Part shown: positions 10,954 through 16,784 of the stretch, in pieces | Position numbering within the stretch: position 1 is the first letter of the stretch | How the letters are laid out: each line of letters opens with the position of its first letter | IMG/VR virus record: IMGVR_UViG_3300022923_000092 | Location: 1-25,544 of that record | Length of the DNA stretch: 25,544 bases | Strand: one strand, 5' to 3' | Source: a virus | Lineage: Duplodnaviria; Caudoviricetes | Program-made: the position numbers and the translations under genes | The notes under the pieces: generated by a model | Seen by the model: only the letters and a program-made list of their open reading frames with translations | Told to the model about the DNA's origin: nothing | Databases searched by the model: none

Positions 10954-13497
10954 ATGGCTATTCTTCCAAGATATCAGCGCATCGGTTTACAAACCCGCCG
11001 ACCTCAGCAGTTGGACTTTGCCGCTACGCGGGAACAAGCCAGGCTTGGGCAGAATATTTCTCAGCAAGTAGATCGTATGGCTGACTTCGCCTTCAAGCAG
11101 GCGGCTGAGGGCGCAGCAATCCGAGGACAGGAGCGCGTTAGGGAAGAGGGCGCTCGCCCTACTCTTGCGGCAATAGAGGCGGCGGGTGGGCCTACTACAA
11201 TAGCAGAGCGTTCAGCGTATGCCCTGGGTAGTCGCGTGGCTGTTGCGGAAATACAGAATGAAGCTGAAATCGAGATAATGCGGATCTTGAATGATGCTGA
11301 AACAAATGAGACACCGTTTAGCACTGTCCAGGCACAGCTTGCCGATATTACAGATGGATACTCTGCATCACTAGATACAATCGATCCAGAGGCGGCATTG
11401 ATGCTGCAAACCAGGTTATCCTCTGCATCTATCAAAGCAGAAGAAAGATATTCAAATTATTATGTAAAGTTACAAGCATCAAAAGCTAAGGCAAAAGTAA
11501 ATAGCGCCGCTGATGTCCAGCTCGATCGTGTTGTCGGTAATGCAATATTGCCTGGTTATAACGCAGAAAGAATAAGAAGCGACATTGATGAAAGTTTTGA
11601 TTTGCTGGCCGGTCTGGGTGCTGATGATGCAACTCTTACCGCCTTTAAAGAGCAGGCATTTAATGCTGCTATAAAAGAAAACACAATTTATAAGTTCAAT
11701 ACATCGGATCTCGATACCCAGGCTGAGATGCTGACTAGCATGGAGACAAAGCCGGTTGCTGGGATGTCTTTGGAACAAACGCAATCTCTGCGCAAATCAT
11801 TGCGAGCTGACTACAATTCTAAATTACAGGTTACTAAAGGCGAGGCCGCGGCTGTTATCTCTGACGTTAATGAGCAAAACCGTATATTAGCATTGGGCGG
11901 CATGCCTTCGCAGAAAGAAGTATTAACACTAAAAGAGAGAGCTGACGCTGCCGGTGATTATGGTGCGGGCGCAAGGGATGCTGTCGGACGCTTGCAGTTC
12001 AACATGGAATTTGCTGCTGCATTCCGCAAGATGACGCCACAAAATCTAGCTGCTGAGGTGCAGGCTCTAAGGCAAGGTCTTGAAGGTATCGGCGAGGCTG
12101 GCATTGATACGCTCATAGAAGCTGAAATATTAAAGGTTGCACAGGCGCATCTAACTGCCGCTGAAGCCGGTGTGGAAAAAGCTCAAACAGCTCGCAAAGC
12201 AGAGTTTAAGCCTATTGTTGATAACCTGGCGAATGAAATTGCAGACTTCCAAAAGATAGTTGATTCCGGTCGCGCTGTGGAAAGTGGAGATATTGCAAAG
12301 TTAATTGAAGCTGTCAGCAATGTTCCAGAAGATCTAAGGCAAGATCTTACTGAGGATGTTATGGCATTAAACATAACAAGTGCTACTGCTGAGGCTGTAG
12401 GCAATATGACGCCAGCCGAAGCTGCTGGATACATTAGATCCCTCGGAGCGGGCATTGAGGGCATTGGCGATGCTGGATTAGATACTCCGGTCGAGATAGA
12501 AACATACGATCTTGCGAAGAAAATGCTTTCCGGCATGGAGGCAGAATTAAAAAAAGATCCTCTGGGATATGCCATGCTCGTTGGCCTTACAGATGCAAAT
12601 GGCAATGCTATTGAAATCACACCGATTAACTTTACAGATCAAGATGCAACAATAGAAACTATGAAAAAACGCATCAATGATGCGACTATTGTTTCTTCTA
12701 AGTATTCAACGCCAGTAACATATTTCACGCCGCAAGAAAAATCTATGCTGGCTGAAGTTATGTCTGAAGCCGATCGCTCTCAGCGCATGTTCTTTCTAGG
12801 TGCTATTGTTGAAGGTGGCGGCCAAGCGGCTCCTGATATGTTGGCTGAAATATCCAATACTGCTCCAGAGTTTGCCGGTATTGGTGCGCTGGTTGTAAAC
12901 GAAAGAATGGATGCGGCAAATAAAGCTTTGCGCGGTATGGATTTAATCAAAAAAGGATTAAAGTTAGTAGAATTTACACCATCAAATACCGAGATTCCAT
13001 TTAAGGCAAAGACTGATGAGGCTTTACGTTATCAGCCAAACGCCATTGGCATTACCCGTGAGGTTGCTAAAGCAATTTATGCAGATATAGCTGGAAGGGA
13101 AGAACAATTTAATGAGGGTCTTTGGAATCACGCCATAGATCTTGCCCTTGGCGCTGATGGAGCTGGCAATGGCGGCATTCAAGAAGTTCGCAACGCAAAC
13201 ACATTTGTACCGCCAAACCTAAGTTCTGATGATATTGAGGCAGCACTCAAAGCAATGACACCAGAGAACATATCTTTTGCATCTAATGGCCAGGTTATAA
13301 GCGAAGAATATGCAGAAGATATTTCTGGTCGTGGAATGTTTGTTCGTGACGATAATTACAAAGTAATATCATATGGTGGAAATAACTTTATCTTGGCATA
13401 TGGAGACCCCACTATAAGTCAGCCTATATATGTTTTTGACAAAGCTGGTGATTTGTTAATATTTGACATGCAAAAGTTAGTTGAGGCCACTCAATGA
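10954..13497 (+). CDS. Internal virion (ejection) protein, large and helical
   Basis: 847 aa, 'MAILPRYQ' start, all-alpha composition, gp15-like position, internal repeat with 125-aa spacing. Confidence 0.7.
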   Translation: MAILPRYQRIGLQTRRPQQLDFAATREQARLGQNISQQVDRMADFAFKQAAEGAAIRGQERVREEGARPTLAAIEAAGGPTTIAERSAYALGSRVAVAEIQNEAEIEIMRILNDAETNETPFSTVQAQLADITDGYSASLDTIDPEAALMLQTRLSSASIKAEERYSNYYVKLQASKAKAKVNSAADVQLDRVVGNAILPGYNAERIRSDIDESFDLLAGLGADDATLTAFKEQAFNAAIKENTIYKFNTSDLDTQAEMLTSMETKPVAGMSLEQTQSLRKSLRADYNSKLQVTKGEAAAVISDVNEQNRILALGGMPSQKEVLTLKERADAAGDYGAGARDAVGRLQFNMEFAAAFRKMTPQNLAAEVQALRQGLEGIGEAGIDTLIEAEILKVAQAHLTAAEAGVEKAQTARKAEFKPIVDNLANEIADFQKIVDSGRAVESGDIAKLIEAVSNVPEDLRQDLTEDVMALNITSATAEAVGNMTPAEAAGYIRSLGAGIEGIGDAGLDTPVEIETYDLAKKMLSGMEAELKKDPLGYAMLVGLTDANGNAIEITPINFTDQDATIETMKKRINDATIVSSKYSTPVTYFTPQEKSMLAEVMSEADRSQRMFFLGAIVEGGGQAAPDMLAEISNTAPEFAGIGALVVNERMDAANKALRGMDLIKKGLKLVEFTPSNTEIPFKAKTDEALRYQPNAIGITREVAKAIYADIAGREEQFNEGLWNHAIDLALGADGAGNGGIQEVRNANTFVPPNLSSDDIEAALKAMTPENISFASNGQVISEEYAEDISGRGMFVRDDNYKVISYGGNNFILAYGDPTISQPIYVFDKAGDLLIFDMQKLVEATQ

Positions 13498-16400
13498 ACT
13501 TTGACCAGCCCGATCCGCTAGACATCCTGCCCCAGCAAGGTTTGCAAGCGCCACCTGGTACGCTTGTGGAAAATCTTACAACTGCGTTTGATGTTGCTCG
13601 CTTCAACGGTGGGTCTGGTGCAAACAGCAAAGCATTTACTATGCTGGAGGTCTGGGGGCCGATCGTAGACCTAGCCAATCAAAACGGCGGTGACTTTGAA
13701 AACCCTGGCATATATCTCAGCAGCAGCTTGTTTGATACAAGCGCTCCTCGCGTTTATGAGCGGCAAACCCAAGAGCTTTATTCCTGGCTGGCACAGAACA
13801 AAGATTCACTGCCGCCAGAGCTACAAGATATAACGCCTGATGTAATCGATCAGCGCACTAAAGACTTTGTGCAATCTAAGCAGAATGAATTAGCAGAGCT
13901 TGCAAGAACAAATCCTGATCTGGCTAGTGCATCTGCTCGTTTTATTGGCTCTATGGGTTCGGCGTTTGGTGATCCGGTAACGCAAGCCACAATGCCGTTT
14001 GGTGGCTGGTCTAAATCATTCTGGAAGAACGTAATGCAGAGCGCTGCTATAAATGCTGGCGTTGGTGCGATTACTGAGGTTGATGTTGCCAAGTGGTATG
14101 ATGAGCTTGATCTGGAATACAGCTATCAAGACTTTCTGGCAAATGTAGCTATTCAAGGCGCATTCGGTGCAGCATTGCCTGTTGCTGGTCGCGGTATAAG
14201 AATGACTGCGGAGCAAGCAAAGAAAGGTTGGGAAGTATTATCTGGTAAAGGCCGCAAGCCTGTTAGCCCAGAGGATCAAGCCTTGGTTGATGTCCTAGAA
14301 GCACAAGAGGAAGTGGTTGCCACTAATCCGCTAGAAACGCCGCAAGATCCTAATGTGGCAGAGTTTGAGCATCAGAGCCGCTTAACTGCCGCACAGGCAG
14401 CGATAGAGAACAATCAAGCGCCTAAGATAACACCAGAGCCAAACGCGCCTATAAAGCCTTCTGTAGCAGCGCAAGCAGCAGATAATCTTGACGGTGTTCT
14501 GTACACTTTAGATCCAGATATAATTGAGGTTGATGCCAAGACGTTTCAGTTTAAATCTGGCGGTGATGAGTTTGGCGTAACAGAAAGGCTGCAAGGTGTA
14601 ACAACCTGGGATAAATACAAAGCTGGTGTTGTAACGGTGTATGAATATGCCGATGGCCGCTTGGCTATTGCTGATGGCCACCAGCGTCTAGGTCTAGCAA
14701 AGCGCATTCGATCGCAAGATCCTTCTCAGGATGTAAAGGTTATCGGGTATAAGCTGCGTGAGGTTGACGGGATTAGCCCAGAAGAGGCGCGTGTTATTGC
14801 TGCAATGAAGAATATTGCAGAAGGCACTGGCACATCTATTGATGCCGCTAAGGTGTTGCGGGTTGAGCCTGATAGATTGTCAGAGCTGCCGCCACGTTCT
14901 GAGCTAGTTCGCCAGGCTAGAGATATGATGGCTTTAAGCGATGAGGCATTTGGTGCTGTTGTTAATGAGGTGATACCGGCAAACTATGGCGCTATCGTTG
15001 GTAGATTGATTGATGATCCTAAGCTGCAAGATGCTGCTATCCAGGTCTTAGCTAAGTCTGAGCCTAGTAATGCCTTCCAAGCGGAATCAATCGTGCGCCA
15101 GGTGCGTGAGGCTGGAGCTGAAGAGGTAGAGCAAATATCTCTATTCGGTGAAGAGCTGGTAACTGAAAGCTATTATGTAGAACGTGCAAAGATCTTAGAT
15201 CGAGCATATAAAGAACTGCGCCGTGACAAAGCAGCATTTGAAACATTGGTTCGTAACTCGGAACGCCTGGAAGCAGAAGGCAATATCTTAGTTAAGGAAG
15301 CAAATGAAAGAAAGGCAAATACAGATGGCCAAACGATCGCGCTCCTCCAAACGCTTGCAAACAGAAAAGGGCCGCTCTCCGATGCCCTCAACCAAGCAGC
15401 AAGAACAGCCAGAGACACAAACAGCTATGTCGAAGCAACCAGAGGTTTCCTCGATGCTGTCAGAGGATCAATTGAATCGGGCGACTTCGACCGCATATCT
15501 TCTGGCGACATTGGACGCGCTGTCGATGGTGCGCCGCAGATCGCTCGATCTGAAATTGAAAAAGAACCAGCCCTTGAGGGCTTCGACGAGCCAACGGGGA
15601 TAGCAGCAGAACGTCAAGCCGATCAGCTAATTGATGATATGTTTGGCTCTGACGAGGTGGATGCTGACTCTATTGCTGGCCTCAAACGGTTGCTTGATGA
15701 AAGCCCGACCAGAGATCAGATAGACAATCATCCATCTGTAATTAAAGCGCTAGATGAAATGGAAGCTCGCGCAGAGACTTCTGGCATAGAAGGCTATAAT
15801 ACAGAAGCCTGGCATAACTCTCGCGTTTATAAAATAGATGACCAGGATGTTACCTCAACAGCAGAGGCAATGGTTCGGTTCGAGCGTGATGCAGAGCAGT
15901 TAGCATTTAAAGAGCTAGGTATAGATCCACAGCCTGTTCTTAGAAATAAAGAGCTTACTATAGTTTTAGGCCCACCGGCTGCTGGTAAAAGCACAATCGC
16001 CAATGAATTAGCCATTGCAAACAGATCTGCTATCCTAGACAGCGATGAGATTAAAAAGGCATTGCCAGAGTATGAGGGTGGTATTGGTGCATCAGCGGTA
16101 CATGAGGAGAGTTCTGACCTGGCAAAGATCTTACAATCCTTGATGATTGAGCAAGGAACTAATATCGTTTTGCCAAAAGTGGGCCACACTGCCTCTAGTA
16201 TCCGCAAAGCAATATCACTATATAAAGATAAGGGGTATAAGGTTCGTCTTGTAAATATGGATGTTACCCCAGAAAACGCATATCAACGTATGATTGGGCG
16301 TTTCGTATCTTCTGGCAGAATTATTCCACCGGCATATCTTGATGCTGTTGGGGCTAATCCATCTGCCACATTTAGAACATTAAGACAGGAGGGCGCAGCC

Positions 16401-16784
16401 GATGGCTATGCAGAAATCGACAACAATGGCGGCTTCAATGACCCCAAAGAAATCAGAGAAGTCTCAGGAGACAACCCGTTATCAGGATCTAGCTTCGATG
16501 TACCTTCGGGTGGACGAACAGAACCAGACGCTATCAGAGTCGCAGAGCGCGATAGTGCAACGTATTCTCTCGAAAAAACGCAGCCTACCCCAGACGGAGG
16601 AATAGCTGACGATATAAATACATCTGACATCTTTGATGACATGGATCTTGAGGTTCCTCTTGGTGAGCGCCTAGATCCTGACACTAATGAAGTTGTGCCA
16701 ACAACTATGACGCTTAGAGATGTTAAGGCTCAAATGGATCAGGAAGATGCAATGATAGCCCGATTGGAGTTCTGTACAATATGA
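13494..16784 (+). CDS. Polyvalent internal virion protein: ejection-type N-terminus + ParB/Srx-like domain + zeta-toxin-like P-loop kinase
   Basis: Gly/Ala-rich hydrophobic helices in the N-terminal part. 'AIADGHQRLGLA' (DGHQR at 14673-14687). 'IVLGPPAAGKST' (GPPAAGKS at 15969-15992), 'ILDSDEIKK', 'HEES', 'NIVLPKVG', 'AYQRMIGRF..SGRIIP'. ATGA overlaps on both sides. Confidence 0.75.
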   Translation: MNFDQPDPLDILPQQGLQAPPGTLVENLTTAFDVARFNGGSGANSKAFTMLEVWGPIVDLANQNGGDFENPGIYLSSSLFDTSAPRVYERQTQELYSWLAQNKDSLPPELQDITPDVIDQRTKDFVQSKQNELAELARTNPDLASASARFIGSMGSAFGDPVTQATMPFGGWSKSFWKNVMQSAAINAGVGAITEVDVAKWYDELDLEYSYQDFLANVAIQGAFGAALPVAGRGIRMTAEQAKKGWEVLSGKGRKPVSPEDQALVDVLEAQEEVVATNPLETPQDPNVAEFEHQSRLTAAQAAIENNQAPKITPEPNAPIKPSVAAQAADNLDGVLYTLDPDIIEVDAKTFQFKSGGDEFGVTERLQGVTTWDKYKAGVVTVYEYADGRLAIADGHQRLGLAKRIRSQDPSQDVKVIGYKLREVDGISPEEARVIAAMKNIAEGTGTSIDAAKVLRVEPDRLSELPPRSELVRQARDMMALSDEAFGAVVNEVIPANYGAIVGRLIDDPKLQDAAIQVLAKSEPSNAFQAESIVRQVREAGAEEVEQISLFGEELVTESYYVERAKILDRAYKELRRDKAAFETLVRNSERLEAEGNILVKEANERKANTDGQTIALLQTLANRKGPLSDALNQAARTARDTNSYVEATRGFLDAVRGSIESGDFDRISSGDIGRAVDGAPQIARSEIEKEPALEGFDEPTGIAAERQADQLIDDMFGSDEVDADSIAGLKRLLDESPTRDQIDNHPSVIKALDEMEARAETSGIEGYNTEAWHNSRVYKIDDQDVTSTAEAMVRFERDAEQLAFKELGIDPQPVLRNKELTIVLGPPAAGKSTIANELAIANRSAILDSDEIKKALPEYEGGIGASAVHEESSDLAKILQSLMIEQGTNIVLPKVGHTASSIRKAISLYKDKGYKVRLVNMDVTPENAYQRMIGRFVSSGRIIPPAYLDAVGANPSATFRTLRQEGAADGYAEIDNNGGFNDPKEIREVSGDNPLSGSSFDVPSGGRTEPDAIRVAERDSATYSLEKTQPTPDGGIADDINTSDIFDDMDLEVPLGERLDPDTNEVVPTTMTLRDVKAQMDQEDAMIARLEFCTI
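15304..15603 (+). CDS. Nested +1-frame ORF A (99 aa) inside the polyvalent gene, after the ParB-like region
   Basis: SD TAAGGA 15293-15298, 5 nt before the ATG; alternative ATG 15325 with GAAAGG. Host-frame codons shift locally to CTC/GTC/TTC. Confidence 0.5.
   Translation: MKERQIQMAKRSRSSKRLQTEKGRSPMPSTKQQEQPETQTAMSKQPEVSSMLSEDQLNRATSTAYLLATLDALSMVRRRSLDLKLKKNQPLRASTSQRG
16402..16605 (+). CDS. Nested +1-frame ORF B (67 aa) inside the polyvalent gene, at the end of the zeta-like domain; candidate antitoxin
   Basis: Perfect SD AGGAGG 16387-16392, 9 nt before ATG 16402. The host frame becomes a low-complexity linker with C-ending codons. Confidence 0.55.
   Translation: MAMQKSTTMAASMTPKKSEKSQETTRYQDLASMYLRVDEQNQTLSESQSAIVQRILSKKRSLPQTEE

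Follow-up and report, generated by a model that had tools for sequence, protein, structure and literature searches.

Phage head-associated toxins of the MuF type are commonly accompanied by small open reading frames (ORFs), which follow 89.4% of the 191 genes for MuF toxins surveyed in PMC5576092, and in one such pair, Apk2 and IapK, the small protein is described as occluding the acceptor site of the toxin (PMC12226406). Polyvalent and ejected phage proteins also carry domains that seem lethal to the producing cell, and the main text that defines the polyvalent proteins (PMC5512222) names no immunity partner for them. Here, we describe a locus which suggests that such partners sit in alternative frames of the same genes, where they are overlooked by gene callers. 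The DNA that we analyzed, referred to here as the window, is the whole 25,544-nucleotide stretch (positions 1 to 25,544) of the Caudoviricetes record IMGVR_UViG_3300022923_000092, and the element under study, ORF B, is a 67-residue frame nested in a 1096-residue virion gene, behind a kinase module with the fold of the zeta toxins. Our analysis indicates that ORF B is a conserved +1 nested frame under selection, and that it likely encodes a small antitoxin that is predicted to plug the acceptor cleft of the kinase and would silence it in the cell that makes the virions.

A candidate antitoxin nested behind a zeta-like kinase

ORF B (16402-16605, + strand; 67 residues followed by TAG) lies in the +1 frame relative to the host gene at 13494-16784 and covers host codons 970-1038. 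The first-pass annotation of this DNA had proposed a nested candidate antitoxin with a perfect Shine-Dalgarno (SD) sequence, and this was borne out, with AGGAGG located at 16387-16392 (+), inside host codons Q965-E966-G967. This motif occurs four times on the + strand of the window, and two of the other copies precede the capsid gene (6182) and a tail gene (7325). It is spaced 9 nt from the ATG at 16402 and 15 nt from the ATG at 16408, and since anti-SD pairing is stronger at the first of these (-10.5 vs. -2.6 kcal/mol), the likely start is 16402. RNA folding there is unremarkable (z -0.15). The core of ORF B, residues 28-61 (16483..16584, +), comprises two helices and a signature consisting of an aromatic residue (Y34), then A/V at position 37, then E/D at position 38, with the aromatic residue present in 61 of 70 aligned rows and the acidic residue in 66 of 70. 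ORF B has no usable family match in Pfam, PHROGs or the ESM Atlas, and comparison with PDB sequences gave weak helical matches only, with zeta-antitoxin complexes not matched by sequence. An ORF B profile identified 4 proteins among 5.8 billion, and 8 among 1.84 billion representatives, compared with the 148 loci found in DNA. One 98-residue homolog (P0123) carries the core motif duplicated in tandem.

The kinase module occupies host residues from about 725 to 1003 (15666..16502, +) and matches PF06414 (Zeta_toxin) over residues 818-979 (E 2e-18). Its AlphaFold model, with a predicted local distance difference test (pLDDT) score of 96.5, matches the zeta toxin (1gvn; Z 16.9, root-mean-square deviation 2.8, 198 residues aligned), PezT (15.6) and AvrRxo1 (14.6), and the top Foldseek matches are 3q8x, 1gvn and 2p5t. 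The Walker A loop, GPPAAGKS (15969..15992, +), places K832 opposite zeta K46, with its G, A, G, K and S invariant in 70 of 70 rows, and the catalytic D851, which aligns with zeta D67, is likewise invariant together with K832 in all 70. When the window kinase is aligned by sequence to 1gvn, zeta E116-G-T118 corresponds to P894-K-V896; under this mapping, the Thr118 position is Val in 66 of 70 rows and Ile in 4, the Arg120 position is G, H or D, and the feature of zeta that binds UDP-N-acetylglucosamine (UNAG) is absent. Because the kinase has Val in place of the UNAG-binding Thr118, its substrate is probably something other than UNAG.

A survey of 68 complete host genes demonstrated that the slot filled by the kinase in the window contains a kinase in 32 genes, a synthetase module in 31, and nothing in 5. 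The ORF B profile matches 31 of the 32 kinase genes, with the remaining one (L090) containing an ORF at the same spot that scores E 0.3, and none of the 32 contains the antisense nested ORF found with the synthetase. Of the 31 synthetase-module genes, 30 contain this antisense ORF, the one miss (L032) having a premature stop, and none contains ORF B; the five module-less genes contain neither. ORF B is therefore linked to the toxin domain, in that 0 of 36 complete genes without a kinase give an ORF B profile match, where the ORF B and antisense profiles were both built from members of the tested sets. The best solved-sequence match of the synthetase module is the toxin Tas1 (E 3e-15), and its model has a small alarmone synthetase fold, which argues that the slot holds toxin-type enzymes. 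In L033, L038 and L052-L054, the last module and its nested ORF are both missing, so the module is dispensable for the host protein.

The core of ORF B also occurs in a non-overlapping form. In L111, L112, L119, L269 and L271 (nine loci when duplicates are included), the kinase gene stops 37 codons past the equivalent of D970, the Asp codon is GAC, the nested ATG and the SD are lost, and a stop ends the +1 frame within 5-18 codons. One base past the stop of the kinase gene, the next gene opens with the ORF B core, the only part of ORF B kept in this form, and continues into other domains, with the host frame closed. Pairwise comparisons of the ORF B core with the non-overlapping form gave 38% identity (E 3e-5) and 37% identity (E 8e-6). 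In our tree, a quick version rooted at its midpoint, the non-overlapping group is located among the nested ones and near the clade of the window, which suggests that the direction was from nested to free, i.e., an un-nesting; the overlapped and non-overlapping forms of one gene among close relatives would then give a rare view of nesting being undone. The L112 and L119 loci lie in terminase-portal head modules. Their gene chains (L119 160-7350; L112 2249-5780) consist of a portal-ART gene, the kinase gene and an ART gene, with each gene beginning with a short module before a repeated spacer motif. As the module following the kinase is the ORF B core, the module following the ART domain may be the immunity of that domain.

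We modeled the complex of host residues 725-1003 with ORF B residues 20-67, together with three controls. The complex scored 0.86, compared with 0.01 for the best of the controls. Of 157 solved complexes, 116 reach the mark used here, as do 2 of 215 mismatched pairs, and this mark applies only roughly to a model made with our own alignments. Contacts agreed between runs at 94% or more, and the pLDDT of the partner was at least 76. The modeled interface on ORF B spans residues 24-56, with helices at 30-41 and 47-57, and Y34, the most conserved aromatic residue of the family, touches the invariant H870 and Y948. The contacts on the kinase also include the invariant G897 and residues 895-899, the equivalent of the zeta substrate loop 117-121, and the confident contacts cover the acceptor side and omit the P-loop (826-833), residues not named here being uncertain. 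Since the interface avoids kinase residues 970-1003, which share their DNA with ORF B, it is not an artefact of the overlap. Mean conservation is 0.47 at the interface vs. 0.57 elsewhere. The model predicts that ORF B sits in the acceptor cleft, away from the ATP site that epsilon blocks.

These comparative and modeling data make the antitoxin role, although putative as a function, a well-supported one. We propose that ORF B would be translated by internal initiation at 16402 on the late transcript, with inhibitor and toxin made together from the same mRNA, and that, as a plug of the acceptor site, it would guard the producing cell until the host protein is packaged. After packaging, the 1096-residue protein would be ejected free of the peptide, leaving ORF B behind, and in the next host the kinase would phosphorylate its acceptor, probably a nucleotide-type metabolite other than UNAG, which may weaken that host or its defences. 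With the kinase as an internal module ahead of a conserved C-terminal tail, this architecture would force nesting: the immunity gene that usually lies downstream would have to be written across the linker, and the toxin would then travel with its antidote as one cassette. On our best reading, ORF B would represent a new antitoxin family, whose concealment in another frame lets the toxin remain inside the ejected polyprotein.

Several points weigh against this proposal. The activity and toxicity of the kinase are putative, as are the translation of ORF B, its binding to the kinase and its neutralisation of it. The case for toxicity is weakened by the Val at the zeta Thr118 position, since the equivalent Thr-to-Val exchange is described as making PezT non-toxic (PMC3062530). 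A helical peptide can be modeled into any cleft, zeta-antitoxin complexes exist in the PDB, and the placement in an acceptor cleft comes from residue lists mapped through the zeta alignment and not from coordinates. Gene order is the sole basis on which the host protein would be ejected with the DNA, and the RNA-library contigs that span parts of the stretch (X1, X2, X5 and X9) are uninformative on strand, starts or transcription. ORF B is weakly conserved, with a mean column identity of 16% and distant members 4-20% identical to the window, and the search for equivalent +1 ORFs behind other zeta-like domains, as called for in the first-pass annotation, was successful with related kinases but identified no ORF B homolog by profile behind the distant domains of PSS2, HCTV-5, DAC16 and L178-L180. 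An antitoxin model must also account for the fusion of the core to a far larger protein in the non-overlapping form, whether by cleavage or by the fusion itself being active.

A real ORF B that binds the kinase could also be a folding or packaging chaperone, or a co-ejected regulatory subunit, and no toxin inhibitor. The comparative evidence and the complex model show partnership, not inhibition, a kinase without the zeta Thr118 might be non-toxic, and the core is fused to a head-module protein in L112 and L119. We consider such a role unlikely, since the modeled contacts on H870, G897 and the loop equivalent to zeta 117-121 would block catalysis, the same slot holds Tas1-like toxins with a nested ORF of their own, and the top folds are all toxins with protein antitoxins. 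The same binding model would also serve if ORF B inhibited the kinase injected by superinfecting kin phages, or later switched off the phage's own injected kinase, rather than protecting the producer cell, and the fast divergence of the peptide and of the interface periphery would fit kin-specific immunity. This is quite improbable: ORF B is on the same strand within a late structural gene and no promoter was found just upstream, in a promoter and terminator scan that stood at chance level (4 promoter sites vs. 6.4 expected), and it would for these reasons be made late with the new toxin, not at entry. We regard the antitoxin role, in which ORF B would protect the cell that makes the virions, as the likely one.

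Conservation and frame of selection

On the window alone, ORF B is within chance, and the evidence for a gene comes from its relatives. When synonymous codons were redrawn without changing the host protein, approximately 17% of trials left the +1 frame open for 67 codons, in a test run on L012, where the protein is 100% identical to the window over the ORF B region. The codon counts reported earlier for the host frame in the overlap are correct, with Ile encoded by ATC in 3 of 3 cases before a terminal ATA, Phe by TTC in 2 of 2, and Asp by GAC in 5 of 8; C-ending codons make up 10 of 13 in the overlap vs. 52 of 155 elsewhere (Fisher p=0.005), for amino acids that were picked post hoc.

Two collections of relatives were analyzed, which share loci, so that their counts are not independent. 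The first, selected by the first module of the host protein, contains 80 loci, of which 36 have the kinase and 35 are anchored, and a complete +1 ORF of 60-67 codons is present at the same place in 34 of these 35, with the remaining one ending at the contig edge. The second was obtained by a kinase-alignment search in which 169 loci were examined and 166 anchored: 148 contain an ATG and at least 50 residues, 4 are cut by the contig end, 11 have no ATG, and 3 are short. These loci are redundant, and collapse to 64 at <85% and to 35 at <50% ORF B identity. This collection leaves out 52 weak genome matches (L181-L232) and the unanchored L178, L179 and L273, the last being a frameshifted contig in which ORF B is still visible. 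Conservation of the +1 peptide among related kinases, on which the first-pass annotation had made its proposal depend, was found down to 48% kinase identity. As the lineages were chosen for an ATG and at least 50 residues, the observations that GAT is present in 31 of 31 and that 35 of 35 are open vs. 12.7 expected are circular, and are not used as evidence. When the four exception lineages are counted as failures, 35 of 39 are open vs. approximately 36% expected, which is a rough estimate; L180, at 32% identity, is the sole exception lineage without an ORF B homolog.

The pattern of variation changes on entering the overlap. All nine of nine close relatives keep ORF B, and substitutions in its 3′ part fall mostly at host position 1. 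Pooled over four clades, variable columns at host positions 1, 2 and 3 number 127, 76 and 339 in 600 kinase codons vs. 61, 39 and 41 in 156 codons of the ORF B core (chi-square p 9e-12), so that per-site variation falls from 0.565 to 0.263 at host position 3 and rises from 0.21 to 0.39 at position 1. The ratio of nonsynonymous to synonymous polymorphism (pN/pS) in the core is 0.33-0.61 in the +1 frame vs. 0.69-1.22 in the host frame, and this order is reversed for codons 1-22, which overlap the last two predicted strands of the kinase (host 971-976 and 986-992 in the AlphaFold model). The earlier view that selection acts mainly on the +1 frame consequently holds from codon 23 onward, and not over codons 1-22, where the host frame is selected; in the same way, the host sequence under ORF B is a G/S/D/P-rich linker over the core (about residues 26-61), and not over the codons that overlap the kinase strands. 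Ratios are also low in the antisense frame that shares its third position with the +1 frame, yet that frame is open in just 8 of 35 lineages. SD pairing ahead of the ORF B start has a median of -6.3 kcal/mol in 35 lineages vs. -2.1 kcal/mol at 334 other +1 ATGs of the kinase module, and reaches -5 kcal/mol or better in 24 of the 35 vs. 48 of the 334; most lineages have AAGGA or AAGGG as the SD, not AGGAGG.

These data bear directly on whether ORF B is an untranslated shadow, where host D-G spells ATG and a G/S/D/P/R-rich linker is free of +1 stops by chance. In addition to the result from the window alone, the null probability in the synonymous-redraw test is 0.8-1.0 in some GC-rich lineages, 20 of 175 50-codon +1 windows inside the kinase module are also open, and host RLRRGG-like motifs recur over the core, all of which would fit a shadow. 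It is nevertheless very unlikely, given that the null probability is 0.02 or lower in 18 of the 35 anchored loci, that variation drops at host position 3 and rises at position 1, that the SD is enriched, and that the core is kept where the host frame is closed. Moreover, in L117/L118 and L294/L295, the start of ORF B is shifted downstream and the homolog remains (E 0.002 and 0.19), i.e., the start relocates and is not lost. We conclude that ORF B is almost certainly a real protein-coding gene.

Fused toxin-antitoxin proteins exist, and ORF B, which is in frame +1 and begins at the end of the kinase, could in principle extend the kinase at its C-terminus through +1 frameshifting. This is extremely unlikely, as an in-frame stop precedes the ATG, by 7 codons in the window and directly in L062, L153, L162 and L168, a shift at this point would remove the last two strands of the kinase, and the ATG and SD are conserved, with the start moving when they are lost. 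The probability that the nested gene here is instead the 92-residue antisense ORF at 16406-16684, which lies in the same frame as the antisense ORFs of the synthetase-bearing relatives, with ORF B as its shadow, is close to negligible, and this explanation is largely refuted by a frame that is open in just 6 of 35 lineages with a pN/pS of 0.84-1.94, by the lack of any antisense-profile match in the kinase loci, and by the decay in the window of the GGAGG present in those relatives.

The virion gene and its other nested frames

Assignment of genes to Pfam and PHROGs families identified the window as the head-tail block of a T7-like podovirus, encoding a terminase, head-tail connector, scaffold, capsid, tail proteins, an internal virion protein, three large genes, a tail fibre and an endolysin, and near-identical contigs are present in salt-marsh libraries. 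A GNAT-like gene located after the terminase (1927-2406) also matches phrog_308, an ‘internal virion protein’. Gene order places the host gene (13494..16784, +) in an internal-virion (ejection) cassette, as a polyvalent protein: it is preceded by tail proteins, a phrog_418 internal virion protein and an 847-residue gene, and followed by a phrog_684 virion protein. Its product contains a first module at residues 334-642, then the zeta-like kinase, then the C-terminal tail. The first module (14493..15419, +) matches phrog_21 (E 8e-25) and phrog_10691 (E 3e-67) and has no Pfam match; we take it to be ParB-like through motif recognition, a label that comes from none of the database matches. The tail (16641..16784, +) is present in kinase, synthetase and module-less relatives, with a host-frame pN/pS of 0.17-0.31 across the last 40 alignment columns, and its position after ORF B is the likely reason that the host frame must stay open through the overlap.

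The features of a polyvalent protein are present, i.e., a large, multidomain, late phage protein with exchangeable enzymatic modules, where the slot contains a kinase, a synthetase or nothing. The 1096-residue protein has no MuF match in Pfam, and its match to phrog_16619 (‘minor head protein’) is limited to the kinase (818-968). The kinase with ORF B also occurs in the middle of much larger polyvalent proteins, with more than 1000 further residues. The host proteins of L018, L087 and L041 have a longer tail (530-547 residues), and L018 and L087 have an extra ParB-like-looking module ahead of the synthetase module. In the Aliiruegeria lutimaris genome (L172 4698-5915), the kinase and ORF B come after the end of a synthetase-like module, in a fragment that lies among host genes and probably represents a phage remnant.

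A second nested +1 ORF, ORF A (15304..15603, +), is located behind the first module, with the second Met (15325) being the one conserved in relatives. Of 80 loci examined, 77 were mapped, and 76 of these have a +1 run of at least 60 codons across host residue 640, with a common core motif; ORF A is a candidate inhibitor of the ParB-like module. The antisense family is found behind the Tas1-like synthetase, for example at L021 7803-8048 (-), L026 7596-7805 (-) and L041 8220-8423 (-), and in 27 more complete loci. Its members are 66-82 residues long, look beta-rich by eye, contain a conserved Trp, mostly have GGAGG ahead of the start, and are unrelated to ORF B; their pN/pS is 0.11-0.28, in a frame that shares its third position with the host frame. 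The family matched no Pfam or PHROG family, and its expression would need an antisense promoter. Just past ORF B in the window (16620-16627, -), the host motif D-D-I-N-T-S-D matches the D-D-T-S-D of these relatives, where the reverse strand is the GGAGG of the antisense ORF; this GGAGG is kept in the module-less L033 and decayed in the window, where it is possibly the scar of an earlier synthetase cassette. Just after position 3034 of L314 (halovirus HCTV-5), behind the distant zeta domain, an R/G-rich stretch of the host frame coincides with about 75 open codons in the +1 frame; these would encode an acidic peptide with no ORF B profile match, possibly an unrelated nested gene.

With three candidate pairs, namely the kinase and ORF B, the ParB-like module and ORF A, and the Tas1-like synthetase and the antisense family, we lean slightly towards a broader proposal, in which the low-complexity ‘linkers’ of phage polyvalent virion proteins would routinely be hidden immunity genes, one cognate inhibitor per enzymatic module, encoded out of frame or antisense. 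If true, this would add an unannotated layer of phage toxin-immunity pairs that allows toxins to be stacked within a single ejected polypeptide, with ORF B as the first inhibitor acting at the acceptor site of a new subfamily of zeta-fold kinases. A toxin-inhibitor pair that can be cloned would permit the injected enzymes to be expressed, the substrate of the kinase to be found, and other polyvalent proteins to be screened.

Comparison with known systems

The epsilon/zeta and PezAT systems, as described in PMC3062530 and PMC5923241, resemble the locus studied here in the fold of the toxin, the Walker A Lys, the catalytic Asp and a small helical protein partner, and differ in that epsilon and ng-epsilon1 block the ATP site, whereas ORF B is modeled at the acceptor cleft. 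Epsilon is a three-helix bundle, unlike the ORF B core of approximately 35 residues and two helices, which has no sequence match to it. The partner in epsilon/zeta is a separate cistron, and ORF B is nested after the toxin domain inside a virion gene. For nesting itself, the lambdoid Rz/Rz1 genes provide a phage example, in which one gene lies within the other in the +1 frame and the two products interact; these are a spanin pair for membrane fusion, not a toxin-immunity module, and are not swapped as a cassette.

In the Rpn systems, as described in PMC10327210, an antitoxin is produced from an internal start inside the toxin gene, as is proposed for ORF B. RpnS, which belongs to bacterial anti-phage defence, is an in-frame copy of the C-terminal domain, whereas ORF B lies in the +1 frame of a phage gene and has a sequence of its own. 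The polyvalent proteins (PMC5512222, Iyer et al. 2017) are similar to the host protein in being large, late phage proteins with ParB-like, zeta-like kinase and RelA/SpoT domains. The main text of PMC5512222 contains none of the terms ‘overlap’, ‘immunity protein’ or ‘cognate’, and describes no nested partner genes; it also takes cell-wall precursors to be the target of the zeta-like kinase, an assumption that the T118V equivalent calls into question for this subfamily.

The MuF toxins, including Apk2/IapK, share with this locus a protein associated with the phage head, an exchangeable toxin domain within it and a small cognate ORF after that domain, and as described for IapK, occlusion of the acceptor site is predicted for ORF B, with the sister module here being Tas1/Apk-like. 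In MuF systems, there is a MuF domain and the small ORF is downstream, whereas here the toxin is internal to a podovirus internal-virion cassette and the ORF is nested out of frame or antisense; in the main texts of the MuF papers, ‘overlap’ occurs once in PMC5576092 and not in PMC12226406. Our full-text literature search listed nothing on out-of-frame or antisense immunity genes inside phage virion proteins. By analogy with these systems, ORF B and the kinase would work like a phage toxin-immunity pair of the MuF/IapK kind, with ORF B acting like a type II antitoxin.

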